Source: Clostridia bacterium
Lineage (GTDB): Bacteria > Bacillota > Clostridia > Oscillospirales > CAG-272
Direction: 5' to 3'
Length of the DNA stretch: 64,000 nucleotides
Assembly (NCBI GenBank): GCA_017517035.1
Contig: JAFXAN010000112.1
Location: 3,648-67,647, forward strand
Below are positions 48-64,000 of the stretch, piece after piece. Below the pieces are notes generated by a model. The model had not been told where the DNA came from, made no database searches, and saw only the letters and a program-made list of their open reading frames with translations. A program made the translations under genes and the position numbers. How positions within the stretch are numbered: the first letter of the stretch is position 1; each line of letters begins with the position of its first letter.

Positions 48-76
48 TTGACTTTTCCGCTCTTTTATGGTACAAT
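48..76 (+). promoter_or_regulatory. sigma-70/sigA-type promoter for the recombinase gene
   Basis: TTGACT (48-53), 17-nt spacer, then TACAAT (71-76) preceded by TG (extended -10). RBS AAGGAGGTG lies at 92-100, before the ATG at 111. Confidence 0.5.
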
Positions 77-110
77 GTTATCAAGAGATACAAGGAGGTG
101 GATTTGCAAT

Positions 111-2327
111 ATGGTAAATAATGTCGCAGACTCCGAATTTGTGGGGGAAATCTTCGGTTATACTCGAATTTCGGTGGATATCGAGAGAGAAGAAGACGTC
201 AATACGAGCATTGAAAATCAGATAAGCGTTATAACAGATTTTGTTTCCAAAAATTTTCCCAAGTGCAGCCTGAAGATATACAAGGACAGAGATCGCTCGG
301 GATATACCTTTGAACAGCGTGAAGAATATCAAAAAATGCGGGGAGATTTACTTGACGGCAAGTCTAAAATCCTCATTGTAAAAGACCTTTCGAGATTTGC
401 AAGGCGAACAAGCTATGGCCTCGGCGAGTTTGAACGCTTGATAGACTCGGGCGTAAGAATTATTTCCATTATGGACAACGTAGACTATCCCACCAAGCCC
501 AACGATTGGCTCTTGATCCAGTTCCACTTTATGTACAACGAAATGCCGGTCACGGAAACCTCGCGAAAGGTGAAAATTGTCGTTTCTGACCGCCAAAAGA
601 AGGGCGACTGGATATGTGCCGCCCCATACGGTTACGTCCTGTCAGAGAAGAAAAATAAGCGGTTTGACGTGGTTCCCGACGAGGCGCAGATCATAAACGA
701 GATATTCAAGCTATATAATGACGGTTGGGGATACAAAAAAATAGCCAATTACTTGACCGACAAGCATATCCCTACCCCGAGGGCAAAAGAAAAAGAACGA
801 GCAGAAGAGGAAGGCGCAACGTATTCAAGAAAATACAACAGCGCCTGGAGTACTGCCACGATCCAGGGGATTTTGCAGAACGATTTTTACATCGGCACTC
901 TGCGTCAACACAAATATACAAGGAAGAAGATAAACGGAAAGGAAATAAAGGTCCCCGAGGAAGATATCTTTGTGTTTGAAAAAAATCACGAAGCCATAAT
1001 CGACGACAAAACCTTTCTATATGCAAAAGAGAACCTCAGACAGCGCTCCAGGGCAAATTACCGAGGCATAAAAAAATATGACACGGCATTTTCGGGATTT
1101 CTTTTTTGCGGGGATTGCGGCAGTCCGATGTTTTCCATGAGTCGCAGCGATCTTCCCCCAGCTTACAGGTGTAGCACCTATCACAAAAGAGGCACGAAGG
1201 GTTGCGAATCGCACCACACCAGAGTGGATTTTCTGAGCGGAGTTTTGAAGGATTATATCCTAATGATAAAGCAGAATTCCGAGAAAATGATTGCAGAGCT
1301 TGAAAGCTCTATAGCCGGTGAAAAAAAGGTGGTCCGTGACAGCGACAAGCTCGTAAAGCAGCTTGAAAATTCCCTTTATCGGGCAAAGGAAGAGCTGAAG
1401 CAGACCACGAAGCAAAGAATAAGCGATATCACAAAAAATCCCGATGACGCGGATATTATCACGGAAACGTATGAAGCGATCGAGACCGAACTGAAAAACA
1501 AGATACGCGGGCTCACGGAACAGATAAAATCCGCGGCTGACGAGAGAAACAATATCGTTGAGATCAACCGCGTTGCAAAAACTGTTTTTGACGTTTTTGA
1601 CAGTATTTTGGAAAAAGATAAGCTGTGCAAGATGGATATCGGTCTGATAGTCGAAAAGATAATGGTCTATAACGGTGATGTGATAGACATTAAGCTAAAA
1701 CCCGACATTGAACAGCTGTTAAATGTTGGAACATTGCCTACAAGCGAGGAAGCTGCAAATTTTAATTTTGACAGTATAGGTAGCTCATTCGGTACGAAGT
1801 ATACCCATAAGTCGGTAAATCAACCGGCTAAGGCTTATACTGTCAATGTTATATGTGAGGGCGACCCTCTCGAGATATACACGGACAGGGAAGGGGAAGT
1901 GATCTTTAAAAAGTATTCACCAATTGGTGAGCTTGCGTCATTTGCTGCTCAATATGCTGAAACGCTTTATAAGACCTGCTCTCTTTCTGTTGTTATTTGT
2001 GACAGGGATGCTGTTATTGCCTCGGCGGGCGTGCCAAAAAAGGAATATGCCGATCACAGGTTATCATCCGAGCTTGAGGGCATCATTGAGGGCAGAAATC
2101 TCTATGTTTGGCATGACGGCAATGAAAAAATTCCCGTTACAGCTGATGGAAGTGCGCATTTTGTGAGCTGTGCAATGCCCATTATGAGTGAAGGGGATAT
2201 TATTGGCTGTGTTGCCTCCCTTTGCCCCATGAACGGCGAAAGAGGCACGGAGCAGACAGCGAGTGACATTGAAAGCAAGCTTGTTCTCACTGCTGCGGGA
2301 TTTCTCGGCAAACAGCTTGAAGGTTAA
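111..2327 (+). CDS. Large serine recombinase whose reading frame continues into the 3' part of spoVT, forming a chimeric ORF across an element/host junction
   Basis: N-terminal resolvase domain (GYTRISV...SIENQ catalytic Ser region, LSRFARR), recombinase domain and a Cys-rich zinc ribbon (FCGDCGSPM...YRCSTY..GCESHH), then a long coiled-coil. There is no stop codon before SpoVT-like sequence begins at nt 1857. I trimmed the start from the ORF-track position 48 to the ATG at 111, which has a strong RBS. Confidence 0.85.
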   Translation: MVNNVADSEFVGEIFGYTRISVDIEREEDVNTSIENQISVITDFVSKNFPKCSLKIYKDRDRSGYTFEQREEYQKMRGDLLDGKSKILIVKDLSRFARRTSYGLGEFERLIDSGVRIISIMDNVDYPTKPNDWLLIQFHFMYNEMPVTETSRKVKIVVSDRQKKGDWICAAPYGYVLSEKKNKRFDVVPDEAQIINEIFKLYNDGWGYKKIANYLTDKHIPTPRAKEKERAEEEGATYSRKYNSAWSTATIQGILQNDFYIGTLRQHKYTRKKINGKEIKVPEEDIFVFEKNHEAIIDDKTFLYAKENLRQRSRANYRGIKKYDTAFSGFLFCGDCGSPMFSMSRSDLPPAYRCSTYHKRGTKGCESHHTRVDFLSGVLKDYILMIKQNSEKMIAELESSIAGEKKVVRDSDKLVKQLENSLYRAKEELKQTTKQRISDITKNPDDADIITETYEAIETELKNKIRGLTEQIKSAADERNNIVEINRVAKTVFDVFDSILEKDKLCKMDIGLIVEKIMVYNGDVIDIKLKPDIEQLLNVGTLPTSEEAANFNFDSIGSSFGTKYTHKSVNQPAKAYTVNVICEGDPLEIYTDREGEVIFKKYSPIGELASFAAQYAETLYKTCSLSVVICDRDAVIASAGVPKKEYADHRLSSELEGIIEGRNLYVWHDGNEKIPVTADGSAHFVSCAMPIMSEGDIIGCVASLCPMNGERGTEQTASDIESKLVLTAAGFLGKQLEG
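1857..2327 (+). pseudogene. spoVT: spoVT fragment lacking about 29 N-terminal codons (most of the AbrB-type DNA-binding domain)
   Basis: EGDPLEIYTDREGEVIFKKYSPIGELASFAAQYAETLY...VICDRDAVIASAG...TAAGFLGKQLEG aligns from about residue 30 to the C-terminus of Bacillus subtilis SpoVT as I recall it (REGDPLEIFVDRDGEVILKKYSPISELGDFAKEYADALY...LICDRD...TAAGFLARQMEQ). No SpoVT-like N-terminus or own start codon is present. Confidence 0.8.
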
Positions 2328-5022: not shown

Positions 5023-5323
5023 AAACAGTAATTTATCGAACTGTTGAAAAGGTAAATAGACGGTGATGAGGACACAGTTAGCCTCCACTGATTTTGAGAA
5101 GCAAAATTAGGGGAGGTGGATTTTGCCGTAAGGCAAAAGACGGAAGGGTCTTATGTGGTGCAAAGTAGCTTTTTTGTTTTATAAAGTTACTTTGCAAGCT
5201 ACACCCTTCAGTCACGGCGAATAGTATCTATTTTTCTACGGCAAGTTATTTCGCCGTGCCAGCTCCCCTATTAAAAACAGGGGAGCCTTATTTTACCGAT
5301 CAATTTCACTTGTATTTAAATTC
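5023..5323. repeat. Structured repeat module of about 300 nt (module S), copy 1, starting with the family TIR
   Basis: Near-identical second copy at 26939-27239 (a handful of substitutions by eye). Contains several nested hairpins. Confidence 0.85.
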
Positions 5324-5489
5324 AAACAGTAATTTATCGGTGAGTGAAAACGAAATTTGTAGGGGCGATCATTGATCGCCCGAAAAAACAAACGGCGTAA
5401 AATAACGATATTTTGAGCTGTTTATGAGACGGGCGATCAATGATCGCCCCTACGGATTAAGGCTTCGACAGTTCGCTAAATTACTGTTT
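5324..5489. mobile_element. MITE-like element with a REPIN-like palindrome doublet (arms a and c, core GGGGCGATCATTGATCGCCC)
   Basis: TIRs AAACAGTAATTTATCG / CGCTAAATTACTGTTT. Two inverted GTAG-headed palindromes flank a 49-nt spacer. Related copies lie at 18260, 27240 and 37051. Confidence 0.8.
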
Positions 5490-7852: not shown

Positions 7853-8051
7853 TTTTACACCTCCCTATGGACTTTTGACCGTGAAAACACAAATTTTTTC
7901 ACAGTAAGGAGACAGGACAGAAAATTTGCCCTGTTTCGAATCAATATTATAACATAGAAATATTCATTTGTCAAGCAATTTTTTCATTTTCCTATTGAAT
8001 TTTTGCGAAAAATGCTGTAAAATTATAGAAAAACCGGTTTTGGAGAGATTT

Positions 8052-8921
8052 ATGGCAAGAAAACGCAGTAAAAGTTTGAAGATTGAGCTTATTATATTAG
8101 CAATTTTTGTAATAATTGCCGGCTATAATTACTATCAGAAGATGAAGTCGGCGGAGCTTGTTGATGACACTGTTGAGCTTCATATAATTGATGTTGGACA
8201 GGGAGACAGCGTACTGATAAAGACAAAGGCGGGTAATATTCTGATAGATGCGGGAACAGGTGAGAGCGAGGAAGCTCTTTCACATTATCTTTATTCTGTA
8301 GGCGTTGACAGCTTTGAATATTGCATATTTACCCATCCTCATGAGGATCATATCGGCGGAGCGGACATGATCATGGAGAATTATGATGTGAGAAATGTAA
8401 TAATTTCGCCTGCCGTTACCGATACTGTCACATTTGAAAGACTTATTGATGCGCTTGAAAGAAGCGATGCGAATATTATTGAAGCCGTGCCCGATTCAAA
8501 ATATTCGGTGGGTGATGTTGAGATAATGATAATGGGGCCTATTGAGCTTGAAGACAGAGATCTCAATAACTCAAGTGTTATAACGAGGGTAAGTTATGGT
8601 GCTGTGAGGATGATGTTTACGGGAGATGCGGAGAAAAAACAGGAAAATGATATTCTCCATAGATATTCTGTTTTCGACCTTGATTGTGATTTTCTGAAAA
8701 TGGGACACCACGGCTCATCAACATCAAGTTCGGAGGATTTTGTTTTTGCTGTTTCACCATATCTTGCGGCGATCTCCTGCGGAATGGATAATGAATACGG
8801 TCATCCTCACAGCGAGATATTATCGCTTCTTGAGCGAGAAGAAATTGAGTATCACAGAACCGATTTGATGGGCGATATTGTCTATGTTTGTGACGGTAAG
8901 AATTTAGAGCTTAAAAATTGA
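8052..8921 (+). CDS. ComEC/Rec2-related metallo-beta-lactamase-fold hydrolase with an N-terminal TM anchor
   Basis: HIIDVGQGDSVLI and HPHEDHIGG (HxHxDH) motifs, plus GHHGS. ATG at 8052 follows GGAGAG; the ORF-track 5' extension was discarded. Confidence 0.8.
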   Translation: MARKRSKSLKIELIILAIFVIIAGYNYYQKMKSAELVDDTVELHIIDVGQGDSVLIKTKAGNILIDAGTGESEEALSHYLYSVGVDSFEYCIFTHPHEDHIGGADMIMENYDVRNVIISPAVTDTVTFERLIDALERSDANIIEAVPDSKYSVGDVEIMIMGPIELEDRDLNNSSVITRVSYGAVRMMFTGDAEKKQENDILHRYSVFDLDCDFLKMGHHGSSTSSSEDFVFAVSPYLAAISCGMDNEYGHPHSEILSLLEREEIEYHRTDLMGDIVYVCDGKNLELKN

Positions 8922-8966
8922 TTTGAAAGTCGGAAAAAAATCAGTGAAAAATAGGTAAGAATTTCC

Positions 8967-8995
8967 TTGACATCGGTTTGTTTCGATGATATAAT
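8967..8995 (+). promoter_or_regulatory. sigA-type promoter upstream of the aldose epimerase / glycoside hydrolase genes
   Basis: TTGACA (8967-8972), 17 nt, TATAAT (8990-8995) with an upstream TG. Confidence 0.55.
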
Positions 8996-9039
8996 CGTGT
9001 CAAACAGTAATATTATAATGTTTTAACGGGTACAAAAGT

Positions 9040-9897
9040 ATGGTGAATGATACAATCATTCTAAAGCAAGGGGAGTGGCAGGCAAATATTTGTCCTCGCC
9101 TTGGAGGTAATATAGTAGGCTTGACTTTTCGTGGTGAAAATGTTTTGAATCCTCTTGAAAATGAAGAATTATTGAAGTCAGATCCTTGTCTTTTTGGGGC
9201 GCCTGTTCTCATGCCCTCAAACAGAACATATGAGGGGCGATTTACCTTTGAGGGACGGGAATATACTCTGCCCCTTAATGAAAAACAGAACAACTGTCAT
9301 ATTCACGGACTTGTTATGTTTAATCGGTTTGAAACGATAAGCTGTGATGAAAATTCTGCGGTTTTGCGCTTTAGCGACAGAGAAAACATCAGCTATCCTT
9401 TCCCGTTTGAGTTGAAAGTCAAATATTCCCTTACAGATGACGGACTTTATTCTGCTTACGAGCTTAAAAATATTGGGCAGGGAAATATGCCGTTTACATT
9501 CGGTCTTCATACAACTTTTTCAGAGCCGGATTCCTTTTCTTGCCCCATCTCTTTGTGCCAGGAAAAGGATGCCCACCATATTCCTACGGGTAGATATATT
9601 CCTTTGAATGAGCAAGAACAAAGATATGCTCTTGCATCTCCTTCGCGAGGTGTGGTTATTTCAGGTTATTATCTTGCAGACGGAAATATTGCCCATATAG
9701 GCGAATATGAGTACAGAGTTTCGGACAATTTCGACCACTGGATACTGTTTAACCGTCGCGGCGAATGCGGATTTTTGTGCGTTGAGCCTCAGTCGGGCGG
9801 AGTTAACGGTCTTAATATTCCCGACGGGCATAAGGTTCTTGCACCAAATGAAACGATATGCTTTGAAACCTTTATTTGCAGAGCATGTGATGCTTGA
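9040..9897 (+). CDS. aldose 1-epimerase (galactose mutarotase-like) family protein
   Basis: Size and beta-sandwich-type sequence with HIHG and HTTF-type motifs typical of the aldose epimerase family. Confidence 0.7.
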   Translation: MVNDTIILKQGEWQANICPRLGGNIVGLTFRGENVLNPLENEELLKSDPCLFGAPVLMPSNRTYEGRFTFEGREYTLPLNEKQNNCHIHGLVMFNRFETISCDENSAVLRFSDRENISYPFPFELKVKYSLTDDGLYSAYELKNIGQGNMPFTFGLHTTFSEPDSFSCPISLCQEKDAHHIPTGRYIPLNEQEQRYALASPSRGVVISGYYLADGNIAHIGEYEYRVSDNFDHWILFNRRGECGFLCVEPQSGGVNGLNIPDGHKVLAPNETICFETFICRACDA

Positions 9898-9929
9898 GAG
9901 AGAATTAAAACTTTTTGGAGGATAGTTTT

Positions 9930-12472: not shown

Positions 12473-12640
12473 AAACAGTAATTTAGCGAACAGTCGAAGA
12501 CGTGTTTTTGTAGGGGACGGCGACCACGACGTCCCTCAAAAGACATGAAATAACCGTGAATTTTAAATGAAAAATGGGACGTCGAGGTCGCCGTCCCCTA
12601 CAGATCTGCGTTTTTTCATCGCACCGACAAATTACTGTTT
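12473..12640. mobile_element. MITE-like element with a REPIN-like doublet (core GGGGACGGCGACCNCGACGTCCC)
   Basis: Family TIRs at both ends, with inverted GTAG-headed GC-rich repeats. A sister copy lies at 43470-43637. Confidence 0.8.
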
Positions 12641-14327: not shown

Positions 14328-14514
14328 TCAATTCACTTCCTTTTTGCTGGAAATAATTATAAACCTTTTTTTCTGAAAAAGCAATAGTTTTTGAGAAAAT
14401 TGTTTCGTTTTGTTCAAGTGTATCGTATTATTCATTGACTTTTTTATGCGGGCAGAGTATACTGTGCTTGAATGATAAACCGTAATCTATCAAAACACAA
14501 AGGAGGCTTTTGAT

Positions 14515-18259: not shown

Positions 18260-18428
18260 AAACAGTAATTTATCGGTGCGAAGAAAAACGCAGATCTGTA
18301 GGGGCGATCATTGATCGCCCGAAAAAACAAACGGCGTAAAATAACGATATTTTGAGCTGTTTATGAGACGGGCGATCAATGATCGCCCCTACGGATTACG
18401 GCTTCGACTGTTCGCTAAATTACTGTTT
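18260..18428. mobile_element. MITE-like element with a REPIN-like doublet (arms b and c), inside the GRE cluster
   Basis: Core and spacer are the same as in 5324-5489. TIRs AAACAGTAATTTATCG / CGCTAAATTACTGTTT. It ends 14 nt before the activase start codon. Confidence 0.85.
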
Positions 18429-21528: not shown

Positions 21529-21577
21529 TGTGTCTGTTTTGCAATAGAAAGCACATTCTATTTATAATTGTTTTTCT

Positions 21578-21768
21578 AAACAATAATTTGTCGGGCTGTA
21601 AAATAGTGGTGAAATCATCCTTTAAAGTTTCCAGATCCTTCGCTACGCTCAGGATGACATGTGGTGATAAATGCCCTCACCACACCTTGTCATTCTGAGC
21701 GTAGCGAAGAATCTATTAGCATTAACGGATGATTATATTGCAACAACCGCTCTGACAAATTACTGTTT
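21578..21768. mobile_element. MITE-like element with a different core (inverted GATCCTTCGCTACGCTCAGGATGAC arms)
   Basis: Slightly degenerate left TIR AAACAATAATTTGTCG and right TIR CTGACAAATTACTGTTT. A sister copy in the opposite orientation lies at 63447-63639. Confidence 0.75.
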
Positions 21769-22637: not shown

Positions 22638-22892
22638 GTTGCGCCCCTCCTTCTTATTTACATTTTAACATATGTTTCAAGGTTTTTCAATATCTTTTTA
22701 TAAATTATTGAACAATTTGCTTTTTTGCTGAGATTCATATATTCAAGGAAAATATCTATTTAATTTTGATTTGATGAAGGTGCATTTCAAAAAGGAACTG
22801 TTTTGTGTAAGAAAGGCACTTTTATCAAAAAAGTTGACTTAGCTCGGTTCTTTATGATAAAATACATTTTATAATATCATTAGGAGGTTTTT

Positions 22893-23768
22893 ATGCGCAA
22901 ATTTTTAGTTGATTTTCTTGATAGATTTGATTACCCCGAAGAGGCAAAGGAAGCACTTGTGAGCTGCTATGATGCGATGGCGGCGGATGAAGGTGCTGCT
23001 GCGGTTATGAATAAGCACCTTGATATTTATGCCGCAGGAGGAGATTACAAGCACTATGAAATGCTTGCGGAAACAACCACTGAGGCTCTGCGCATTGGTA
23101 AGCCTTGGCAGACGGCACATCTTGTTATGGTGATATTACTTTCAAAATATCTTTTGGAAAGATATGCCGCAAAGGGCATTGACGAGCAGAGATGGATAGA
23201 TATTGTGGATGATTTCAAATGTAAGCTTTTTGAATGCCATAATGTTTACCACATCTGGGGCAGCTTTCTCTGTAATTGGTGGGAGCAGAAACTCTCAATG
23301 AATATTTTCGGCGTTGGAAGATTTCAATATCAAATGAAGCCCTTCGGCAGGGAATATAAGGATGAAAATATTCACCTCACACCCGATATGAAGGCTCTCT
23401 CGATACATATTCCGTCATCCGGACCGCTCACAAAGGAGCTTCGTGAGGAGTCATACAGAATGGCAAAGGAGTTTTTTGCACCGTATTTTGGTGATCAGCA
23501 GGCGCTGTTTATGTGCTCGTCCTGGCTTCTCTATCCCGAAAATGAAGAGATGATTCCCGGCTCTAATATTGTTGATTTTATGCATGATTTCAAGGTTTTT
23601 GAGGTCTTTGAACCTGAAAAATCAAACGATCTCTGGAGAATTTTTGGAGATGCTTGTGTTCTTCCGTATGAGCTTTTGCCTCGGAATAATTCTCTGCGCC
23701 GTGCTTATGCTTCCCGTCTTTGCGAGGGCAAAAAAGTTGGTCTAGGAATCGGATTTTTTGTCAGATAA
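22893..23768 (+). CDS. conserved hypothetical protein, possibly an acyltransferase-like fold
   Basis: Long ORF with a good RBS (AGGAGG). No diagnostic motif could be recognised with confidence. Confidence 0.5.
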   Translation: MRKFLVDFLDRFDYPEEAKEALVSCYDAMAADEGAAAVMNKHLDIYAAGGDYKHYEMLAETTTEALRIGKPWQTAHLVMVILLSKYLLERYAAKGIDEQRWIDIVDDFKCKLFECHNVYHIWGSFLCNWWEQKLSMNIFGVGRFQYQMKPFGREYKDENIHLTPDMKALSIHIPSSGPLTKELREESYRMAKEFFAPYFGDQQALFMCSSWLLYPENEEMIPGSNIVDFMHDFKVFEVFEPEKSNDLWRIFGDACVLPYELLPRNNSLRRAYASRLCEGKKVGLGIGFFVR

Positions 23769-23780
23769 AAATATTTCATT

Positions 23781-23820
23781 TAATTCCTTGAGAATATACA
23801 TGTATATTCTCAAGGAATTA
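23781..23820. repeat. 40-nt perfect palindrome
   Basis: TAATTCCTTGAGAATATACATGTATATTCTCAAGGAATTA equals its own reverse complement. Confidence 0.9.
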
Positions 23821-23942
23821 TTTGCATTTGCGGCAAAATTTGCCGTTCTGAATCAGGTTCGTATAATACTCCGAACCTTAAGGTTGACGAATCGTTTTTT
23901 TTGTGATATAATTATGCTAAATAAACAATACAGAGGTAACGG

Positions 23943-26195: not shown

Positions 26196-26885
26196 ATGGA
26201 ATTTAGCGAGAGACAAAAAAAGATAATAGATCTTTTAAGTGAACGCAGTATGTCTATAATGGAGATTGCCAAAAGGCTGTCTTCCAGCGAAATGACCATC
26301 AGACGAGATGTTGCAGATCTCAAAAAAATGGGAGTTGTAGATCAATTCAGAGGTGGAGTTTCCATCAAAAAAGCCAGATCCTTTCAGTCCTTCGACTTTA
26401 GGTCAGATATTGAAAAAAATGAAAAAATGGAGCTTGCAAGAAGGGCAGCGGAGCTTGTACAGGATGGAATGCTGATTTATATTGATAATTCAACTACCTG
26501 CTGGTATATTGTGCAGTTTCTCGGTAAATTCCGTGATCTTAAGGTTGTTACAAATTCTGCGCCGGTAATGAACGATCTTGGAAATATGGGAATTAAGGTC
26601 AAAATGGCAAGCGGAAATTATGTTCACAGAGACAGATGTGTTGTCGGAAGCGAAACCGAAGAATATATAAGAAATTATAGATATGATCTTGCGTTTCTTT
26701 CCTCGAGCGGATATAACGATAAAAGGATAGTGAGCTGGAGTGAAGCACAGATCAATGTAAGACGCGCAGTTATCGAAAGTGCTGCTAAAACATATTTTTT
26801 GATGACCCCCATGAAAAAAAACAGAAGATCATATTTTGTTGCTTGCAGAACAGAGGATGTTGAGCTTATAACACTTGATAAATAA
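26196..26885 (+). CDS. DeoR family transcriptional regulator
   Basis: N-terminal HTH (ERQKKIIDLL...MSIMEIAKRLSSSEMTIRRDV) plus a DeoR C-terminal sensor domain. Confidence 0.85.
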   Translation: MEFSERQKKIIDLLSERSMSIMEIAKRLSSSEMTIRRDVADLKKMGVVDQFRGGVSIKKARSFQSFDFRSDIEKNEKMELARRAAELVQDGMLIYIDNSTTCWYIVQFLGKFRDLKVVTNSAPVMNDLGNMGIKVKMASGNYVHRDRCVVGSETEEYIRNYRYDLAFLSSSGYNDKRIVSWSEAQINVRRAVIESAAKTYFLMTPMKKNRRSYFVACRTEDVELITLDK

Positions 26886-26909
26886 AGGGCTGATTTTTCA
26901 GCCCTTTTC
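26884..26909 (+). terminator. terminator hairpin, repeat copy 2 of 3
   Basis: AAAGGGCTGATTTTTCAGCCCTTTTC, identical to the one at 4968. Confidence 0.8.
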
Positions 26910-26938
26910 TTTGTGATGGTTTTTGATTGTACTTTATT

Positions 26939-27239
26939 AAACAGTAATTTGTCGAACTGTTGAAAAGGTGAATAAACGGTGCTGAGGACACAGTTAGCCT
27001 CCACTGATTTTGAGAAGCAAAATTAGGGGAGGTGGATTTTGCCGCAAGGCAAAAGACGGAAGGGTCTTATGGGGTGTAAAGTAGCTTTTTTGTTTTATAA
27101 AGTTACTTTGCAAGCTAAACCCTTCAGTCACGGCGAATAGTATCTATTTTTCTACGGCAAGTTATTTCGCCGTGCCAGCTCCCCTATTAAAAACAGGGGA
27201 GCCTTATTTTACCGTTCAATTTCACTTGTATTTTAATTC
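26939..27239. repeat. structured module S, copy 2
   Basis: Collinear with 5023-5323, with few substitutions. Confidence 0.85.
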
Positions 27240-27337
27240 AAACAGTAATTTAGCGGTGAGTGAAAACGAATTTTGTAGGGGCGATCATTGATCGCCCCTA
27301 CGGATTACGGCTTCGACTGTTCGCTAAATTACTGTTT
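27240..27337. mobile_element. collapsed MITE (arms a and c joined by a single palindrome)
   Basis: Ends are the same as in 5324-5489, but only one GTAGGGGCGATCATTGATCGCCCCTAC unit is present and there is no spacer. Confidence 0.8.
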
Positions 27338-35153: not shown

Positions 35154-35311
35154 TGTTTTTCCTTTTCAAAACAGAAATTTAACTTTAATATTATATCACA
35201 AATGTTCGTTTAAATCAAGCAAATAAAATAAATTGCTTGTCAAGAGACGAAATATGCACAATTTTGCACGCCTGAAAAATGGATTTGTTGGCGTTTTCGA
35301 CAAAATCCCCC

Positions 35312-37050: not shown

Positions 37051-37218
37051 AAACAGTAATTTAGCGGTGAGTGAAAACGAAATTTGTAGGGGCGATCATT
37101 GATCGCCCGTCTCATAAACAGCTTAAAATTTCGTTATTTTACGCCGTTTGTTTTTTCGGGCGATCAATGATCGCCCCTACAGATCTGCGTTTTTCATCGC
37201 ACCGACAAATTCCTGTTT
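37051..37218. mobile_element. MITE-like element with a REPIN-like doublet (arms a and b), spacer inverted relative to arm a
   Basis: Same palindromes as 5324 and 18260. The spacer is the reverse complement of that in 5324-5489 when both are anchored on arm a. Confidence 0.8.
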
Positions 37219-37289
37219 GAAAAATAATTATAAACAGAAGAGGTCATCTCTTGGTGAGATGACCCCATTTTGAATCAATCTATCTTTGA

Positions 37290-43412: not shown

Positions 43413-43438
43413 AAAGGGCTGATTTTTCAGCCCTTTTT
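43413..43438 (+). terminator. terminator hairpin, repeat copy 3 of 3
   Basis: AAAGGGCTGATTTTTCAGCCCTTTTT. Confidence 0.8.
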
Positions 43439-43469
43439 GTCTGTATATTAGTTGAAACCGGAATTAAAT

Positions 43470-43637
43470 AAACAGGAATTTGTCGAACGGTCAAAGATGT
43501 GTTTTTGTAGGGGACGGCGACCTCGACGTCCCACAGAAGACATGAAATAACCGTGAATTTTAAATGACAAATGGGACGTCGAGGTCGCCGTCCCCTACAG
43601 ATTTGCGTTATGTTCACGCACCGACAAATAACTGTTT
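43470..43637. mobile_element. MITE-like element, sister of 12473-12640
   Basis: TIRs AAACAGGAATTTGTCG / CGACAAATAACTGTTT and the same GGGGACGGCGACC..CGACGTCCC doublet. Its right end overlaps the stop codon of the FAD gene. Confidence 0.8.
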
Positions 43638-45489
43638 ATTCAGCTTTGAGAATTTTCAGTGCATTATCAAGAAATTCGCTTATTTCCTGACCTGATGCGC
43701 TTTCGGGCGTTCCTCTTGAAATGAAATCAATAATTTCGTTTCTGCTGTCGCCTGTAAAAAGCTCTTGGAATTTATCGAGATATTCAGCCTTTTTGCCCAA
43801 TTTTTTGCTGAGCTTTATAATTGCCATAACAGCATGGGTGAAAAGCTGATAATATCCGTATGCCATTCTCTCGGAAGCATAGACCAGAGGTGCATTCGGC
43901 ATTGAATACATGGGATTTTTTCTCTCCCGGCTATCGAAAACGATGGTGGAAAGAAGCTCGATGTCATTTTCATTTCCGAGCCTGCCGAGAAGACAAATGG
44001 CGGCGGCAGTTTTATACTGATTTGAGCGTCTGCAACCAACAAAATAATCAAGATTTCTGTTTCTGACCTCTTCTCTGAGGCGAGGTAAGGCTTCTTTTCT
44101 TCCCATCATGCCGAGAGCTATTGCATAATGAAGCTGACCGTCATATTCATTCAGCAATTTTTCGGCAGCTTTTTCGCCCGAAATATAGCAGGACCATATT
44201 GCCTCACCCGGACTTTCACTATTAAGTCCTTTGAATATTTCATCATCCGTCAGGTCAAAGCGGACGCTGCGATATAGCTTTCCGTTTGGTGAATCGAAGG
44301 CGAAATCGTCCTTCATTGCTCCGTCAAAAGCAGAGTATTTTCTTGCTATCATCAAATATTCATCATAGTCTATATCCAATATATTATATTTGTTCGACTT
44401 TGCGGCAATGGCTACGGCAATTCCGACGCATTCACCAATTCTGAACATATCACGGTTCATTCTCACGGCACTTGATGAATAGCTGTCAAGAGATATACAT
44501 CTGCCTGCACTGAGAATCCCATCAAGTCCTTTCGGCACTACTGCACCCATTGGCAGGGCAATTTTTGCAGTTACCGTTGAAAGATTGGATATTACCCACC
44601 AATTCTGGTAGATCTCATCGTCAATGGCAAGATCCCTGCCGTGCCTGTCGAGATCAGAACGGCAATAGAGAAGTGTTTTTTGAGGCTTTTTCATGAAGAG
44701 TATGTCTTTATATGAGAGCATTTCCTCTCCCTCGAAGCGCTTTCCTTCTCTGACACCAATATTCGGTGCAACCGAGATGATCTCCTTGTTTTCTTTCATC
44801 AGAAATTCAAGCTTTGAGGCGTGGGCATTGATGATGCTTTTTGAGATCTCAACGGGATCATACTGATTTCTGTATCCGTCATCGTCATTATAGTAGCCGT
44901 AAAAGCCGTCCTCGTCAAGATAATCTATGCGGTTGGTGAAAGGTGCAGCTTTTCCGTCGGCTATTCTTCCAAAATATGTTTTCACGGGGCACATTGAAAT
45001 AATATGTCCCTCGGATGTTGCATCTATCAGCATTTTTGATGCGATATTTTTCTGCTCACCTCTTATAAGCGCACGAACACCGATAGCTCTTTTACCGTCA
45101 AAATAAACACCAAGGGCAAGCGAGGAGCAGAGAAGCTTTATCTTATGCGTGGAAATGAGTCGGAAAAGCTCACAGTGCCGTGATTCGGTATGAATATATC
45201 CCCCCTCAAAGAACTTGTCAAGCTCGATTGCATTTTTCTCGACCTTTTCAAATGTGCCGCCAACCTCGCCATAATAAAAGGTTGGCACCATTCCCGTGAT
45301 GGGCATTCCTCCAATATTTTCGTCCCTTTCAAGGGCTATGACCGATGCACCCTCTCTTGCGGCGGAAATAGCAGCATACGCACCTGCTGCGCCCATTCCA
45401 ATGCAAAGCACATCGCATTCCATATCAAAGTTAATATTTTTTACCTCTTCAGTAAGTTGTTTTCCGTTTTCGAGATATGAAAGCTTCAT
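43636..45489 (-). CDS. FAD-dependent oxidoreductase with a C-terminal helical-repeat domain
   Basis: Dinucleotide-binding motif DVLCIGMGAAGAYAA...E at the N-terminus. Confidence 0.75.
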   Translation of the reverse strand: MKLSYLENGKQLTEEVKNINFDMECDVLCIGMGAAGAYAAISAAREGASVIALERDENIGGMPITGMVPTFYYGEVGGTFEKVEKNAIELDKFFEGGYIHTESRHCELFRLISTHKIKLLCSSLALGVYFDGKRAIGVRALIRGEQKNIASKMLIDATSEGHIISMCPVKTYFGRIADGKAAPFTNRIDYLDEDGFYGYYNDDDGYRNQYDPVEISKSIINAHASKLEFLMKENKEIISVAPNIGVREGKRFEGEEMLSYKDILFMKKPQKTLLYCRSDLDRHGRDLAIDDEIYQNWWVISNLSTVTAKIALPMGAVVPKGLDGILSAGRCISLDSYSSSAVRMNRDMFRIGECVGIAVAIAAKSNKYNILDIDYDEYLMIARKYSAFDGAMKDDFAFDSPNGKLYRSVRFDLTDDEIFKGLNSESPGEAIWSCYISGEKAAEKLLNEYDGQLHYAIALGMMGRKEALPRLREEVRNRNLDYFVGCRRSNQYKTAAAICLLGRLGNENDIELLSTIVFDSRERKNPMYSMPNAPLVYASERMAYGYYQLFTHAVMAIIKLSKKLGKKAEYLDKFQELFTGDSRNEIIDFISRGTPESASGQEISEFLDNALKILKAE

Positions 45490-47347: not shown

Positions 47348-47389
47348 TTGTTTCAAATCTCCTTTATTTTCAAGGTTTTTCAAATTGGC

Positions 47390-47412
47390 TTGACACCAAT
47401 TTGACACCATTT
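47390..47412. repeat. left copy of the imperfect direct repeat flanking the GRE-2 island
   Basis: TTGACACCAATTTGACACCATTT, compared with CTGACACCATTTCTGACACCAATTT at 51153-51177. Confidence 0.6.
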
Positions 47413-47573
47413 ATCTCAAAAAATAAATATCTATCGTTTATAATACCATAAAATTAATATAAAATCAATAATTTTATCGATTTTGATGGATTAATTTTTT
47501 GAAATCAGTTGACAAATTGACTATTGTGTAATATACTTATTACATAATAATAAATATATTACGAGGTGATAAA

Positions 47574-48335
47574 ATGTCGCGTGCTCCTGCGGTGGATTAT
47601 GCGGTGCAAATAATTGAACTTTTTTCTAAGAAGGACGATATAGGTATTGCAGATATCAGTAATGAATTAGATATAAACAAAAATGCTGTAACACGGGTGT
47701 TAGAAGCATTAGTTGAAAAGAATTGGATCTATATGAGTGATACGGTCGCAAAAAAATACAGTCTTACATTACGCCCGTTTTCTATGTTATCCGGACAAAT
47801 ATGTAACAACAACCTTGTGAAAATTGCAACACCACATTTGAGAGACTTGAACCAAAATCTTGGCGATTCTGTATATCTTGGTGTTAAAAACGAAAGAAAT
47901 GTGCTTTATCTTTCACATTATGATTCCACAAAGGAAGTTAGAATCAATGGTCGTACGGGTGGGGAATATCCTTTGAACTGTTCTGCACCCGGTAAAATTC
48001 TTTTATCTTATTCGAATCTTGATGAAATCAAAAGCTATTTTGATGTATCCGTCGATAAACGGACAGAAAACACCATTATAAAATTTGATAACTTTATGGC
48101 AGAGGCTGACAAAATAAAAAAGTCCGGCTATGCTATCGACAACGAGGAATTCGCCAAAGGTATTATTTGCATTGCTGTGCCTGTTTTTGATTATGCAGAA
48201 AATATGGTGGCAAGTATAGGCGTTTCTTCTCTTACGCTATATGACGATATTGACTCTTTGATTAACCATAAATTTGCTTTGCTGAAAAAAGCTGCAGATG
48301 AAATATCGTTATGTCTTGGGAAAAAGAAAATGTAA
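47574..48335 (+). CDS. IclR family transcriptional regulator
   Basis: N-terminal winged HTH plus an IclR effector domain (...GYAIDNEEFAKGIICIAVPVFD). Confidence 0.85.
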   Translation: MSRAPAVDYAVQIIELFSKKDDIGIADISNELDINKNAVTRVLEALVEKNWIYMSDTVAKKYSLTLRPFSMLSGQICNNNLVKIATPHLRDLNQNLGDSVYLGVKNERNVLYLSHYDSTKEVRINGRTGGEYPLNCSAPGKILLSYSNLDEIKSYFDVSVDKRTENTIIKFDNFMAEADKIKKSGYAIDNEEFAKGIICIAVPVFDYAENMVASIGVSSLTLYDDIDSLINHKFALLKKAADEISLCLGKKKM

Positions 48336-48348
48336 AGGGAGGGATTTA

Positions 48349-48798
48349 ATGAAAAAATCAACATTATTTGCAAAATTACCGGATTATGTTGCAACTCCTG
48401 ACGGAATGACAATAGACAAGGACGGTAATCTTATACTTGCGTGTCCAAATTATGGCGACCAATCTATGCCCGGTTGTATTTTAAAAATTGATAAAAACAA
48501 GAATATAGAAAAATGGTTTGATGTTCAAGTTCATGAAGAAACAGGGCTTGCTTCACCTATGGGAATAGCATTCGGTCTTGACGGAGATTTATATATCTGC
48601 GACAATCAGGGGTAGCCCGGAAAACCTGAACTTATAAGAAAGGGCAGAATTTTAAGAGTCCGTATAGATGGCAACAATATTGCGAAGGCAACTGTTGTTG
48701 CAAAAAATATGGAACATCCCAATGGTATGAGAATAAAAGACGGATATGTTTATATTACTCAGAGCACGTTAGAACTTGTAAAAGAGATTACTCTATAA
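48349..48798 (+). pseudogene. beta-propeller (SMP-30/gluconolactonase-like) gene fragment with an in-frame TAG
   Basis: PDGMTIDKDGNLILA, PMGIAFGLDGDLYICDNQG, then TAG at 48613-48615. The same frame continues as PGKPE...HPNGMRIKDGYVYIT. Total length is only 149 codons, against 285 for the paralog at 16752. Confidence 0.7.
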
Positions 48799-48811
48799 GG
48801 AGAACATTTTT

Positions 48812-50806
48812 ATGGGAAATTTGACAAATTTAAAAGAGTTTATATTTGAAACAGATAATAAGGCGTGTTTTATTGAAAGAGATGAAATTTTAGGACGCTT
48901 GGAAACTGAAATGGCTGATTATGACAAACCGGACAAATTTGCAATTATTTTTTCAAAGCTGTTAAGCGAGGTTTCCGTACCCATAAATGAAGATGACTAT
49001 TTTGCCGGACGTGTTGTTGAAGCTTTACCCTATGAAGGTCTGAAAACAGCAAACTATCTTTTGAATTCAGCAGGACATCTGAGTCCGGATTACGGAAAAG
49101 TTTTGAACTGCGGCTTAAAAGGTATAGTTTCCGAAATAAATGATATTGCAAGAAAAAAGGGCGATGCCGAATCTAAAAGCTTTGCGGAAAACGCTGTAAT
49201 TGTGGCAGAAGCAGTGCGTGCTTACTGCCTGCGCTATGCGGAAGAAGCCCAAAAAGCAGGATTTCATAAAATGGCAAAAGCACTTCGGGTTGTTCCTTAT
49301 GAACCTGCTTATGATTTCTATTCTGCTTTGCAGGGAATATGGATTTTGCATATGATACTCAGTTGTTATATTGGTTCTCGTGATTATGCATTCGGAAACT
49401 TTGACAAATATATGCTCCCATTTTACGAAAAAGCTCTTGCCGACGGCAAGACTGAAACGGAGCTTACAGAACTTCTTGCCGGATTCTTCATTAAAACAAA
49501 TGAAATTTGCGGAAGATGTACGCACAACTATAACGCAAAACCGGTCTTGTGTCAGGCATCCAAGCAATATGTCAATATAGGCGGAGAATTCCCAAACAAA
49601 TTTTCGATTGTATGCCTGAAGGCAGCAGAACTTAATAATATGGCACAGCCGGAAATAGTTGTCCGTTTAAAACCGGACGCTGATGCAGAGTTTACCGAGC
49701 AGGTGTTTAAGTTGCTTGCGGTTTTAACAGACAAGGTGAATATATATAATTATGACACCATCTTCAAATGTCTTACAGACCGGGGTGTAAAGCCTGATGT
49801 GGCGAAAGATTTTACTTATTCGGCTTGCTGTACTTTTGATTTGCATTACCATAACCCGAGGGGCGAATATTATGTTCCGACTGTACAGATTTTTCTTGAA
49901 GTTCTGCACAGTAAAAATTATACTTCAATAGAAAAAATTTTAAAGGACTACACTGCGGCGTTGTCAAAGGATATGGAAAACCAACACTGGATAAAGCCAA
50001 TAGAGGATATGCGGCAGACTGCTGTACTTGACTCATTGCTCCTGACCGACACAGCTATGGAATGTAAATATGCATATGACAAAGACCGTGCGTATTGCCT
50101 CAACAATTTATTTTTGCCTGGGGTTGCAACAATAGGCGACTCACTTATGGTGCTGGATAAGCTTGTTTTTAAAGAAAAACGTTATTCCTTCGCGGAATTT
50201 ATGAAAATCCTTGATGAAAATTATGAAAATAACGAAGAGCTTAGAAGTGAAATACTGAATTACGAAAGATTCGGAAATGACAGTGAAAATGATAATTATA
50301 CAGCTATGGTAGGCAATGCTATGGTTGACGCAGTTGACAATCTAGAAAAGCGCGATAATGAATATAACATTCCGGGATTTTACTCTCTGGAACGTGACAA
50401 TAGTTGGTGTGGCAAAATAGGAGCTTCGCCTGACGGAAGAAAAAGCGGAGAACCGTTTAGCGAAAATCAGTCACCTACTTATGGTGCCGATAAGAATGGA
50501 ATAACAGCACTTTTAAAAAGTATTTCAAAACTGCCCTTTGAGAGAACTGCAGGCGGCGGACTCAATTTGACCTTTTCACAAAAGGTTTCATCGGATGTTT
50601 TAAAAGCCCTTATACTGACTTATTTCAGCATGGGTGGGCTTCATGTGGGAATAAGCGTAATTGACCGCAGCACTTTGCAGGATGCAATGGTTAATCCCGA
50701 CAAATACAAGAGCCTGACGGTAAGACTATACGGCTTTAGCGAATATTTTGTAAGTCTTCCCGAATGGCAGCAGATTGCTGTTTTGAACAGGACCGAATAT
50801 AAGTAA
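48812..50806 (+). CDS. glycyl-radical enzyme, very short form (664 aa)
   Basis: C-terminal LTVRLYGFSEYF glycyl-radical fingerprint (Gly641, nt 50732-50734). SPDGR motif is present. Candidate active-site loop is SACCTF (Cys339/Cys340, nt 49826-49831). Confidence 0.8.
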   Translation: MGNLTNLKEFIFETDNKACFIERDEILGRLETEMADYDKPDKFAIIFSKLLSEVSVPINEDDYFAGRVVEALPYEGLKTANYLLNSAGHLSPDYGKVLNCGLKGIVSEINDIARKKGDAESKSFAENAVIVAEAVRAYCLRYAEEAQKAGFHKMAKALRVVPYEPAYDFYSALQGIWILHMILSCYIGSRDYAFGNFDKYMLPFYEKALADGKTETELTELLAGFFIKTNEICGRCTHNYNAKPVLCQASKQYVNIGGEFPNKFSIVCLKAAELNNMAQPEIVVRLKPDADAEFTEQVFKLLAVLTDKVNIYNYDTIFKCLTDRGVKPDVAKDFTYSACCTFDLHYHNPRGEYYVPTVQIFLEVLHSKNYTSIEKILKDYTAALSKDMENQHWIKPIEDMRQTAVLDSLLLTDTAMECKYAYDKDRAYCLNNLFLPGVATIGDSLMVLDKLVFKEKRYSFAEFMKILDENYENNEELRSEILNYERFGNDSENDNYTAMVGNAMVDAVDNLEKRDNEYNIPGFYSLERDNSWCGKIGASPDGRKSGEPFSENQSPTYGADKNGITALLKSISKLPFERTAGGGLNLTFSQKVSSDVLKALILTYFSMGGLHVGISVIDRSTLQDAMVNPDKYKSLTVRLYGFSEYFVSLPEWQQIAVLNRTEYK

Positions 50807-50816
50807 GAGGTTCATT

Positions 50817-50938
50817 ATGTATGGATTTATTTTTAACATTCAGAGGTTTTGCATAAATGACGGACCGGGAATACGCAAACTGTGTTTTTTAAGGTTGTCC
50901 GCTAAAGTGCGTGTGGTGTCACAATCCCGAAAGTCAAC
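50817..50938 (+). pseudogene. remnant of a GRE-activase gene (two frameshifts, 3' part deleted)
   Basis: MYGFIFNIQRFCINDGPGIR is in frame 1, TVFFK in frame 2 and GCPLKCVWCHNPESQ in frame 3. Compare the intact paralog [25 protein letters not shown] at 18443. No homologous sequence follows. Confidence 0.8.
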
Positions 50939-51068
50939 ATGCATTTGGGAAACAGCAACCTAAAATATCATTACTAAGAGAAAAATTGACGATATTATCG
51001 ATTATATCGGCTCAAAAACAAGAAAAACGGTAAAAAAAGCATAATTTTTTACGAAATAAATATTTATT

Positions 51069-51107
51069 AAAAAGCCCGCTATTGTTTTCGTACAATAGCG
51101 GGCTTTT
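51069..51107 (+). terminator. rho-independent terminator
   Basis: AGCCCGCTATTG...CAATAGCGGGCT 12-bp stem followed by TTTT. Confidence 0.8.
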
Positions 51108-51152
51108 GAGGTGTTTTATGTCAAACTCTTTTAATAGTCTTATATATACGCC

Positions 51153-51177
51153 CTGACACCATTTCTGACACCAATTT
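51153..51177. repeat. right copy of the imperfect direct repeat flanking the GRE-2 island
   Basis: CTGACACCATTTCTGACACCAATTT. Confidence 0.6.
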
Positions 51178-51446
51178 TTTATGAAATTTATTCATATTAT
51201 TATAGCTCATATATATGAATTTTTCAAGTATATTTAGCAATTAGATCAAAAAAAATTTATTTTTTTGTAAAAAATCATTGCATTTTTCGTAAAATGTGAT
51301 ATAATATTAAAATGAAAGTGATATTTTACACATAGTTTCTTCATTTTTACGACAAAATTCTGTGAAAATTCAAAATTTTATCACATGATTTTCCCATTTG
51401 TGTTATAAAATGGTATCATCGAGGATTTACAAGGAGGTTAAACGAT

Positions 51447-63446: not shown

Positions 63447-63639
63447 AGGCAGTAATTTGTCGGTGAGTTATAAATGGCAGTTGTGGGTTTGTCCTCCGTT
63501 AATGCTAATAGATTCTTCGCTACGCTCAGAATGACGAGTTAGGGTGAAGGCGCTTCTTGTCATCCTGAACGAAGTGAAGGATCTAGAAACGCTAAAGGAT
63601 GATTTTATCACTATCTGACTGTTCGACAAATTACTGTTT
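63447..63639. mobile_element. MITE-like element, sister of 21578-21768 in inverted orientation
   Basis: Degenerate left TIR (GGCAGTAATTTGTCG) and intact right TIR (CGACAAATTACTGTTT). Inverted GATTCTTCGCTACGCTCAGAATGAC / GTCATCCTGAACGAAGTGAAGGATC arms. Confidence 0.75.
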
Positions 63640-63654
63640 GAAAATTCATCAACA

Positions 63655-63682
63655 GCAAAAGCCACCTGTGGGTGGCTTTTTG
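63655..63682 (+). terminator. rho-independent terminator
   Basis: AGCCACC TGTG GGTGGCT followed by T5. It is separated from the upstream gene by the MITE. Confidence 0.75.
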
Positions 63683-63739
63683 TGATAGTTGGTTGAAATA
63701 TTGAGTTATTCGTGTTATAATTAATGTGGAGGGATAGAA

Positions 63740-64000
63740 TATGACAGAGCTAGAAAAGATACAATATACCAAGAATTTTATTGACAAATTAGCAAGTGGT
63801 ATCAATCCTCTTGATGACAGCCCCATTTCGGACGGTGAGGTCGCAAAAAATCCGAGGATTCTCGGATGCTTTTCGTATGTTTCAGACATTCTCGGTAGAG
63901 TTATTGAAAATGGAGGCACGGAAAAAAAGAAAAAGCACAAGAAAAAATCCTTTGAAATTCCCGAGGACAAGCGAGATGATCTGATTGCTTCGGAAAAGCT
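63740..64000 (+). CDS. hypothetical protein, 5' part only (runs off the window)
   Basis: ATG at 63740 follows GGAGGG. 87 codons are open to the window end (MTELEKIQYTKNFIDKLASGINPLDD...KKKKHKKKSFEIPEDKRDD). It is absent from the ORF track because there is no stop codon. Confidence 0.55.

Follow-up and report, generated by a model that had tools for sequence, protein, structure and literature searches.

A dense family of inverted-repeat-bounded intergenic elements with persistent sites and replaced interiors in an uncultured Clostridia genome

How does a single stretch of bacterial DNA come to hold, at eight separate places between its genes, short non-coding sequences with one kind of end and several kinds of interior? 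The stretch examined here, called the window in what follows, comprises 64,000 nucleotides of the Clostridia bacterium assembly GCA_017517035.1 (contig JAFXAN010000112.1, positions 3,648 to 67,647 of the forward strand), in which an earlier note made from the letters alone had described a dense family of elements bounded by terminal inverted repeats (TIRs) and resembling miniature inverted-repeat transposable elements (MITEs). The repeat family is real, dense and previously undescribed, and its elements are polymorphic between strains, both by presence or absence and through the reuse of sites. What makes it unusual is the combination of persistent sites with rapid replacement of the interior, composites formed at element tips, and core motifs and a 12-13-mer that are shared with unrelated phage contigs.

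Repeat inventory of the window

Ten modules at eight intergenic loci make up 1,923 nt, or 3.0% of the window, and all of them are bounded by Y|AAACAGTAATTTRKCG...CGMYAAATTACTGTTT|R (Y, pyrimidine; R, purine). They are 98-301 nt long, non-coding and dispersed, with more copies in related metagenome-assembled genomes (MAGs), and a self-BLAST of the window showed repeated DNA to be essentially confined to these eight loci. The pattern AAACAGTAATTTNNCG, with up to two mismatches allowed, matched the window 21 times, where chance predicts 0.75 and none of 100 shuffles exceeded 4. This bears out the dense TIR-bounded family of eight loci and ten modules that the earlier note had reported; the coordinates it gave for all eight loci and their share of about 3% of the window also agree on re-reading. 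Eighteen of the 21 matches are module ends and the other three lie at 35169, 59588 and 60487. The note had ascribed identical ends to all elements, and this holds for most, but the right ends of the two 301-nt modules (E1a and E5a) are merely degenerate, the left end of the element at 63447 reads AGGCAG (two mismatches), and four other window ends carry one mismatch each. That all elements are intergenic also holds, except that 43470-43637 reaches with its final two bases into the TAA stop codon of a gene for a 617-aa flavin adenine dinucleotide (FAD) oxidoreductase (43636-45489, minus strand), and that the last element is overlapped by 29 nt by a mechanically called open reading frame (ORF) without a Pfam match (63611-63970, minus strand). 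Five of the eight loci lie between convergent genes and two between co-directional ones. As the note had stated for the window, there is no transposase gene, either there or in the orthologous contigs (Pfam scans and precomputed Pfam matches), the sole recombinase in the window being a large serine recombinase ORF at 48-2327. The modules are as follows.

5023-5323, plus strand: E1a, type D, 301 nt; perfect left repeat, five internal hairpins, right end CGATCAATTTCACTTGTATTT, abutting the left tip of E1b; 96% identical to 26939-27239; DNA fold -57.9 kcal/mol, z -8.5
5324-5489, plus strand: E1b, type A, 166 nt; terminal repeat, arm a, GTAG and palindrome, 47-nt loop, inverted palindrome and CTAC, arm c, terminal repeat, in this order; fold -50.5 kcal/mol, z -12.8
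12473-12640, plus strand: E2, type B, 168 nt, core GTAGGGGACGGCGACC..GGTCGCCGTCCCCTAC; 90% identical to 43470-43637
18260-18428, plus strand: E3, type A, 169 nt, flanked by co-directional genes on both sides, 18 nt past the stop of a GDSL lipase gene and 14 nt ahead of the start of a radical-SAM activase gene
21564-21768, plus strand: E4, type C, 191 nt (21578-21768) with a 14-nt appendix, ATAATTGTTTTTCT, at 21564-21577
26939-27239, plus strand: E5a, type D, 301 nt
27240-27337, plus strand: E5b, type A, 98 nt after collapse; 68 nt between the inverted palindromes are deleted, seen as an alignment gap, and a single GTAG-hairpin-CTAC remains; fold -31.4 kcal/mol
37051-37231, minus strand: E6, type A, 168 nt (37051-37218) with a 13-nt appendix, GAAAAATAATTAT, at 37219-37231, followed by AAACAG at 37232-37237; inverted relative to E3 (150 nt, 93% complementary)
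43470-43637, plus strand: E7, type B, 168 nt; its right tip contributes to the FAD oxidoreductase stop codon
63447-63639, minus strand: E8, type C, 193 nt, inverted relative to E4, left tip mutated to AGGCAG; fold -30.5 kcal/mol, z -5.1

Modular architecture of the elements

Each unit is built in three layers, namely a terminal inverted repeat of about 22 nt (Y|AAACAGTAATTTRKCGRNSNG), an arm of 20-25 nt and an exchangeable, GC-rich palindromic core. A logo of 43 distinct ends reads Y at position -1 and then AAACAGTAATTT, R, K, CG, R, N, S, N, G, with positions 1-12 essentially invariant (40-43 of 43 ends). Positions -1 (Y), +19 (S) and +21 (G) lay outside the search pattern and are hence unbiased in the logo; since each of them is conserved in 42 of the 43 ends, the constrained end must be about 22 nt long. 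AAACAGAAATTT is a variant form of this end. The arms are of few kinds, with a, b and c variants, and combine with the cores as a mosaic (a-c, b-c, a-b and c-b) in which the window shows four core types.

Type A (E1b, E3, E5b, E6): GTAGGGGCGATCATTGATCGCCC and its inverse around a 47-nt loop
Type B (E2, E7): core GTAGGGGACGGCGACC...
Type C (E4, E8): core ...CTTCGCTACGCTCAGGATGACA...
Type D (E1a, E5a): 301 nt, five hairpins, degenerate right end

Folded as single-stranded DNA, all modules form long hairpins (-30 to -58 kcal/mol, z -5 to -14.5). GTAG followed by an imperfect palindrome, arranged as inverted doublets, is found in six modules of types A and B and is missing from types C, D and E, the last being an interior from a sister genome described below. 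Rfam at its gathering threshold returned only a tRNA-Lys for the whole window and no family for the elements, its E-value mode gave generic microRNA-hairpin noise or nothing for E1, E4 and the phage contig L280, and a simple promoter and terminator scan showed no enrichment in the elements.

Site reuse and core replacement between strains

Five contigs of assembly GCA_045540725.1, which match nearly the whole window at 96-98% identity, show what the same eight sites contain in a sister genome.

E1 site: present, right half also type A
E2 site: same arms, with core A in place of core B; two contigs concur
E3 site: absent (L013)
E4 site: absent (L013), the 14-nt appendix gone too
E5 site: a full type A unit follows directly on the flank and terminal repeat, the D module being absent (L013)
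E6 site: a 314-nt element with unrelated interior and identical junctions (L027, 8277-8590; the contig spans all of it)
E7 site: type E interior, related to the 314-nt E6 allele (L151)
E8 site: another C-like core at the same junction (L152)

The earlier note had looked to empty sites in sister strains as the means of defining exact ends. Two of the eight sites are indeed empty in this close relative, but the other six are filled at the identical nucleotide, and in five of these six the interior differs. Further strains extend the pattern, as the right half of the E1b site is of type B in one strain contig (L022), the E7 site holds an inverted type D module in another (L149, 97% identical) and the E3 site holds a 260-nt element with another core in a third (L014, 76% identical), while the E7 stop-codon junction is kept in L148 (89% identical), a contig that ends within the terminal repeat. 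Two sites (E3 and E7) are therefore also filled in genomes that are only 76-89% identical. The boundaries of the replaced segments lie 27 and 44 nt inside the element at E2, and within the first 7-16 nt at E5, E6 and E7. Artefacts of contig ends are unlikely, because k-mers spanning the 16-22-nt repeat tie the interiors to unique flanks and because two of the cases are wholly spanned by a contig. Compared with L013, the window has E5a as a clean insertion of 301 nt abutting a resident type A tip. Contigs of the same strain from five samples (L001/L015, L002/L025, L003, L018 and L026) are colinear with the window at 99.9-100% identity, and none of them carries an inverted interior.

At the E7 site of L149, the interval between the FAD oxidoreductase gene and the element (8050-9726 in that contig) also holds a gene for a 558-aa leucine-rich-repeat protein and about 320 nt of additional sequence, and the final codons of the oxidoreductase are altered (619 versus 617 aa).

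Target sequence and flanking bases

The earlier note had read the outer bases as suggestive of a TA duplication of the kind made by IS630/Tc1/mariner-type transposases. Its recount gives the same figures (TA at seven of eight left ends, TA at four and TG at four right ends), i.e., T precedes AAACAG at seven of the eight window loci and the right ends are followed by A in four and G in four. A strict TA duplication is not supported, as the base outside the near-invariant repeat, taken over all 43 ends, is T in 27, C in 15, A in one and G in none. A T...A pair on both sides is present in only about 6 of 15 complete elements, G comes next in 8 of the 14 right ends first examined, and the exceptions to T/A always form a symmetric Y/R pair. 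The Y/R flank thus looks like a 17th position of the repeat and not like a decayed duplication.

The junction at E4, the only clean pair of filled and empty alleles, can be read in two ways. The empty allele (L013) runs ...GCACATTCTGTTT|AAAAACAAAGGG, also written ...TTCTGTTT|AAAAAC, and the filled allele runs ...GCACATTCTATTT ATAATTGTTTTTCT (E4) AAAAACAAAGGG, with CTATTT at 21558-21563 where the empty allele has CTGTTT. Because both E4 and its 14-nt appendix are missing from the empty allele, the inserted DNA consists of the two together. Either the target was TA, which fits only if the appendix is counted as element DNA, or an element ending in CTGTTT was inserted right after CTGTTT. The appendix of E4 together with its flank is nearly identical to that of E6 with its flank; the two share a 13-nt appendix followed by AAAYAGAA, and at E6 the sequence next to the appendix is AAACAGAA. 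Sequences resembling element ends also stand alone in the window, and a terminator-like hairpin recurs ahead of some elements.

14477-14492, plus strand: solo repeat-like sequence AAACCGTAATCTATCA, matching 13 of 16 positions of the end, directly downstream of a conserved promoter -10 box
35169-35184, plus strand: solo sequence AAACAGAAATTTAACT, conserved in the sister genome
4969-5001, plus strand: terminator-like hairpin AAAGGGCTGATTTTTCAGCCCTTTT, 33 nt

The solo copy at 14477-14492 sits where L014 has the left end of a 333-nt element, upstream of a glycyl-radical enzyme gene. Together with E4, E6 and the D module at E5, this copy suggests that resident tips, or sequences resembling them, are where new copies land. 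The 33-nt terminator has near-identical copies at 26884-26916 and 43413-43445 and no further one in the window; the three belong to three different genes, and from the start of each to that of the element behind it is 54-57 nt. The terminator may be a module travelling with the elements or a preferred landing context that attracts them.

Core motifs and end-like 13-mers in phage contigs

Parts of the elements recur far outside this lineage. More than 120 IMG/VR contigs of 32-71% GC contain the type C motif TTCGCTNCGCTCAGNATGAC; by our own estimate, chance would account for only a handful. Eight phage contigs (53-66% GC) carry the type A unit (GTAGGGGCGATCANTGATCGCCC, or the 23-nt GTAGGGGCGATCATTGATCGCCC), singly or in inverted doublets and without the outer repeat. 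One phage contig, L280, carries six perfect copies of the 13-mer AAACAGAAATTTA, one base off the window end, laid out as TAAATTTCTGTTT-(hairpin modules including a type A doublet)-AAACAGAAATTTA in three consecutive intergenic regions among portal and terminase genes, and a 16-mer repeated in the same contig is identical to the solo 16-mer at 35169. A second contig, L281, is similar, with one copy of AAACAGAAATTTA overlapping a stop codon and another directly preceding a ribosome-binding site (RBS). Pairs with tips outward, of the kind seen in the window, were not found in IMG/VR at a spacing of 130-160 nt, and a 16-mer scan of IMG/VR gave more than 120 chance matches, its apparent pairs lying 620-996 nt apart within phage coding sequence.

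The motif (G)AGATYCTTCGCTNCGCTCAGRATGAC, seen in the window at 21628-21712 and 63510-63590, is a very widespread small palindromic module found in more than 120 viral contigs (L153-L272), often as inverted pairs, and has no Rfam family and no mention in the literature searched. In L280 (9700-12760) and L281 (3800-4060) each gene is bracketed by AAACAGAAATTTA 13-mers, and beside the genes lie conserved modules of about 60-70 nt that consist of a hairpin and tandem heptamers (TGCATTG or TTTCAAT). Between the brackets there are doublets resembling repetitive extragenic palindromic (REP) sequences, and inside the elements of the MAG locus L005 heptamers are repeated in the same arrangement.

Origin and mobility of the elements

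We favour, with moderate confidence, the explanation that these are non-autonomous mobile repeats of the kind of MITEs or bacterial interspersed mosaic elements (BIMEs), restricted to a small clade of uncultured Clostridia. The terminal repeat would be recognised by an enzyme whose gene lies elsewhere in the genome, and new copies would land in T-rich DNA just downstream of genes and terminators, preferentially right against a resident tip or a sequence resembling one (...CTGTTT|). Landing at a tip would yield composites, D+A at 5023 and 26939 among them, older copies would collapse or be deleted between their repeated ends, and the outcome would be long-lived sites with contents that turn over. 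The anatomy, the hairpin potential, the polymorphism between strains, the reuse of sites and the lack of a consistent TA duplication are observed; since the partner enzyme was not found, we infer an enzyme acting in trans, insertion aimed at tips and the way in which one interior comes to replace another. Neither transposase, HUH (histidine-hydrophobic-histidine) enzyme nor recombinase was found beside the ends in the window, the related loci, IMG/VR, PLSDB or the phage ORFs near REP units; the scanned ORFs of the window and of related MAG fragments include no gene that is IS630-like or codes for a REP-associated tyrosine transposase (RAYT, a Y1 HUH enzyme), and the autonomous partner of either type that the earlier note had proposed to look for did not turn up in any sequence searched (window, related loci, IMG/VR and PLSDB). 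Nothing ties the resident serine recombinase at 48-2327 to the repeats, and full-text literature on MITEs in Lachnospiraceae and Clostridia, on RAYTs and REPINs in Firmicutes and on the repeat and core sequences held nothing relevant.

Several observations weigh against an origin by such transposition. The longest visible flanking duplication is 2 nt and a target duplication of fixed length could not be demonstrated, the absence of E3 from L013 is a clean excision under no model, and the absence of E4 could equally be a microhomology deletion in L013. CTGTTT lies just outside the tips at 12 of 39 ends versus 8.4 expected (P ~0.1), which is not significant, and for this reason we treat tip-targeted landing as a lead and not as a result. 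Swap boundaries that fall within the 16-nt repeat leave little length for ordinary homologous recombination, and no gene bracketed by or adjoining the repeats was seen in the window and the related loci (about 40 distinct ends in all), in IMG/VR or in PLSDB. In L280 and L281, moreover, a near-identical 13-mer flanks hairpins in the opposite topology at gene boundaries, which is unlike transposon ends; it is mainly this unexplained topology that keeps our confidence in a pure transposon-end explanation no higher than moderate.

How far do the same observations fit other origins? That the elements are classical MITEs, derived from an IS630/Tc1/mariner-type transposon and moved by cut-and-paste into duplicated TA, we consider quite improbable. 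T does precede AAACAG at 27 of the 43 ends, the flanking bases are T...A at E1, E7, L009b and the two L014 elements, and E4, E6 and E2 read TA...TA if an appendix of 9-14 nt is taken as element DNA; Tc1/mariner ends often begin with (A)CAG, which would suit the repeat. Such an origin is nevertheless made less likely by the C that precedes the near-invariant repeat at 15 of 43 ends and by the G after 8 of 14 right ends, with exceptions that are always symmetric Y/R, and exact reuse of a nucleotide with different interiors at five of six sites would be unexpected for a target of TA only; nor was an IS630-like gene found in the window or the loci scanned. A second possibility is that these are REP, BIME or REPIN-like elements, mobilised as single-stranded hairpins by an HUH enzyme (Y1, RAYT-like or IS200/IS605-like) that inserts them without duplication 3' of YTGTTT, the same hexamer in which they end. 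The lack of a visible duplication, the GTAG and palindrome in inverted doublets of the type A and B cores, the 23-nt GTAGGGGCGATCATTGATCGCCC in eight phage contigs without the outer repeat, the strong single-strand hairpin potential of all units and the polymorphisms of E4 and the D module, which fit a clean insertion directly after CTGTTT, point in this direction. The origin remains doubtful, however, as cores C, D and E lack the GTAG-palindrome signature, it is the outer inverted repeat and not the REP that is conserved across all units, the side of the appendix is of mixed polarity (four plus and three minus in 64 kb) in contrast to the strand bias of the IS608 type, and a Y1 transposase was not seen near the REP units in the loci checked.

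Exchange of whole interiors could also be the work of a site-specific enzyme. If the inverted ends were sites of a serine or tyrosine recombinase, circular hairpin cassettes would integrate at the tips and be swapped as in recombinase-mediated cassette exchange. Two abutted ends would, judging from the logo, combine into a perfect palindrome, about 34 bp long and centred on TA or TR, the targets have at least one good half-site, the footprint is only 2 nt, and junctions that are the same to the nucleotide, replaced interiors and D+A composites would all follow. We nonetheless think this very unlikely, given that abutted-end junctions or circles were seen in no locus, that none of the five independent same-strain contigs shows an inverted interior, that the only nearby recombinase (48-2327) is a conserved resident with a SpoVT_C fusion and no link to the repeats, and that the swap boundaries at E2 lie 27 and 44 nt inside, away from the tips. 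A broader form of the idea, in which the conserved ends would be fixed landing pads where a dedicated sequence-specific enzyme (HUH or site-specific recombinase) inserts and exchanges promiscuous GC-rich hairpin modules, some of them shared with distant bacteria and phages, would amount to a non-coding hairpin cassette exchange in chromosomes and phages; we regard it as unlikely. Mobility, finally, might be secondary, with the 12-13-mer and hairpins acting as a functional signal of the clade and its phages (in transcript processing, termination or insulation) that is selected at fixed intergenic sites. Sites that persist across genomes 76-98% identical, elements at or within a few nucleotides of stop codons and one inside an operon, the identical 16-mer standing alone at 35169, and the bracketing of every gene in a 3-kb stretch of L280/L281 by AAACAGAAATTTA, which overlaps a stop codon and precedes an RBS, could be read this way. 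Against it, a near-identical genome lacks the element at two of eight sites, 27 kb of a close relative are free of copies, the interiors are unconstrained and interchangeable, the promoter and terminator scan and Rfam offered neither enrichment nor match, and real terminators already stand ahead of E1, E5 and E7; we give this explanation little chance.

Two further candidates were rejected outright. Invertons do not agree with the colinearity of the same-strain contigs from five samples, and most elements lie between gene 3' ends. Integron attC sites or cassettes do not fit ends that read AAACAG...CTGTTT and not RYYYAAC...GTTRRRY, housekeeping and regulator genes as neighbours, and no integrase.

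Relation to known repeat families

Read as non-autonomous mobile repeats, the elements have their nearest counterparts in the REPs and BIMEs of enterobacteria and the RAYT-associated REPINs of Pseudomonas. Like these they are intergenic and often between convergent genes, they contain (in types A and B) GTAG and an imperfect palindrome in inverted doublets, they are mosaics of a few unit and linker types, they vary between strains locus by locus and they leave no target duplication. They differ by an extra conserved outer inverted repeat of 16-22 nt, which also surrounds cores without the REP signature, and by their Firmicute host. To our knowledge, REP/RAYT-type biology has hardly been described in Firmicutes. 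The Correia elements of Neisseria and the MITEs ERIC, RUP, Nezha and bcr1 are likewise 100-300 nt long, non-coding, TIR-bounded, hairpin-forming and dense in intergenic space, with internally deleted subtypes and differences in presence and absence between strains, and for Correia, too, the partner transposase is unknown. Correia elements, however, have a TA duplication and one basic interior, whereas the present family has no consistent duplication, many unrelated interiors and reused sites. The BOX elements of Streptococcus pneumoniae are similar in being modular (boxA, boxB(n), boxC), with constant ends and a variable middle, intergenic, of stable secondary structure and from a Firmicute, but their ends are not inverted copies of one sequence and their middle is one repeated family and not a set of unrelated palindromes. 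As an analogy of mechanism only, serine-recombinase transposition of the Tn4451/Tn5397 type and integron attC cassettes share targets that resemble their own ends, a footprint of 2 nt or none and a cassette-like exchange at fixed boundaries; here there is no linked recombinase, the elements are non-coding, there are no attC sites or arrays, and no circular junctions were observed.

If site reuse and core swapping are real, ends and positions are stable while the contents are replaced faster than 3-4% of point divergence accrues. The family would then offer a natural system for how small palindromic repeats move and replace each other in Firmicutes, for how such repeats break metagenome assemblies, and for why hairpin motifs are common to very different bacteria and phages. 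The 22-nt end is a marker for strain typing and for assembly gaps in this gut clade.

Host and distribution of the family

The window, of 41% GC, codes among other things for S6-SSB-S18 and for a serine recombinase that bears a SpoVT_C domain; SASP and SpoVA genes are found in relatives. The repeats thus belong to a spore-forming gut bacterium, uncultured and Clostridia/Lachnospiraceae-like, whose strain is present in the metagenomes ERZ27256852, ERZ27256862, SRR31077521, SRR12529279 and ERZ28653803. The earlier note had proposed counting copies genome-wide by the 16-nt repeat; beyond the window, the exact paired-end pattern, searched in one genome per species, matched two MAG species only, i.e., the Lachnospiraceae MAG CAYPKQ01, with five loci, and a "Clostridia bacterium" MAG from roe deer, the elements of which have the same ends and further, different interiors. 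At L005 (120-156) the two ends alone form a mini-hairpin of 37 nt. A relative about 78-89% identical, GCA_045648605.1, has no copy in 27 kb and CAYPKQ01 has many, from which we conclude that the family is patchy among close lineages. MAG contigs often break off inside elements, so that counts based on assemblies are underestimates. A single metagenome scan with a flanking protein returned only 56%-identical homologues, which were of no help with empty sites, and PLSDB had no match to a 2.4-kb concatenate of nine modules spanning all element types.

The serine recombinase gene at 48-2327 (plus strand) is a 759-aa ORF in which a complete large serine recombinase (Resolvase, Recombinase and Zn_ribbon_recom domains) is joined to a C-terminal SpoVT_C domain, and in relatives about 82% identical it is conserved together with its neighbours. 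The ORF could represent a true fusion, or else a sporulation regulator gene into which the recombinase of an intervening element reads.

Strain-specific genes in the same region

Apart from the elements, the window contains stretches that differ between strains. A 3.8-kb strain-specific island at 47353-51185, absent from L151, carries an IclR regulator, a small ORF and a glycyl-radical enzyme, and ends in a 117-nt fragment (50814-50930) like the start of the activase gene at 18443; at its spot, beside the YchF GTPase gene, L149 has an integrase/RepA_N/IstB element. A single-gene indel of 1.16 kb at 22727-23882, found by comparison with strains 96-97% identical, encodes a GNAT-like acyltransferase with its own promoter. 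That the 1.16-kb and 3.8-kb islands are hidden insertion sequences was rejected on their gene content (GNAT-like acyltransferase; IclR and glycyl-radical enzyme). Another single-gene indel relative to strains 96-97% identical, at 8973-9906, encodes an aldose 1-epimerase, and upstream of this gene lies a perfect consensus promoter followed by AAACAGTAAT at 9002.

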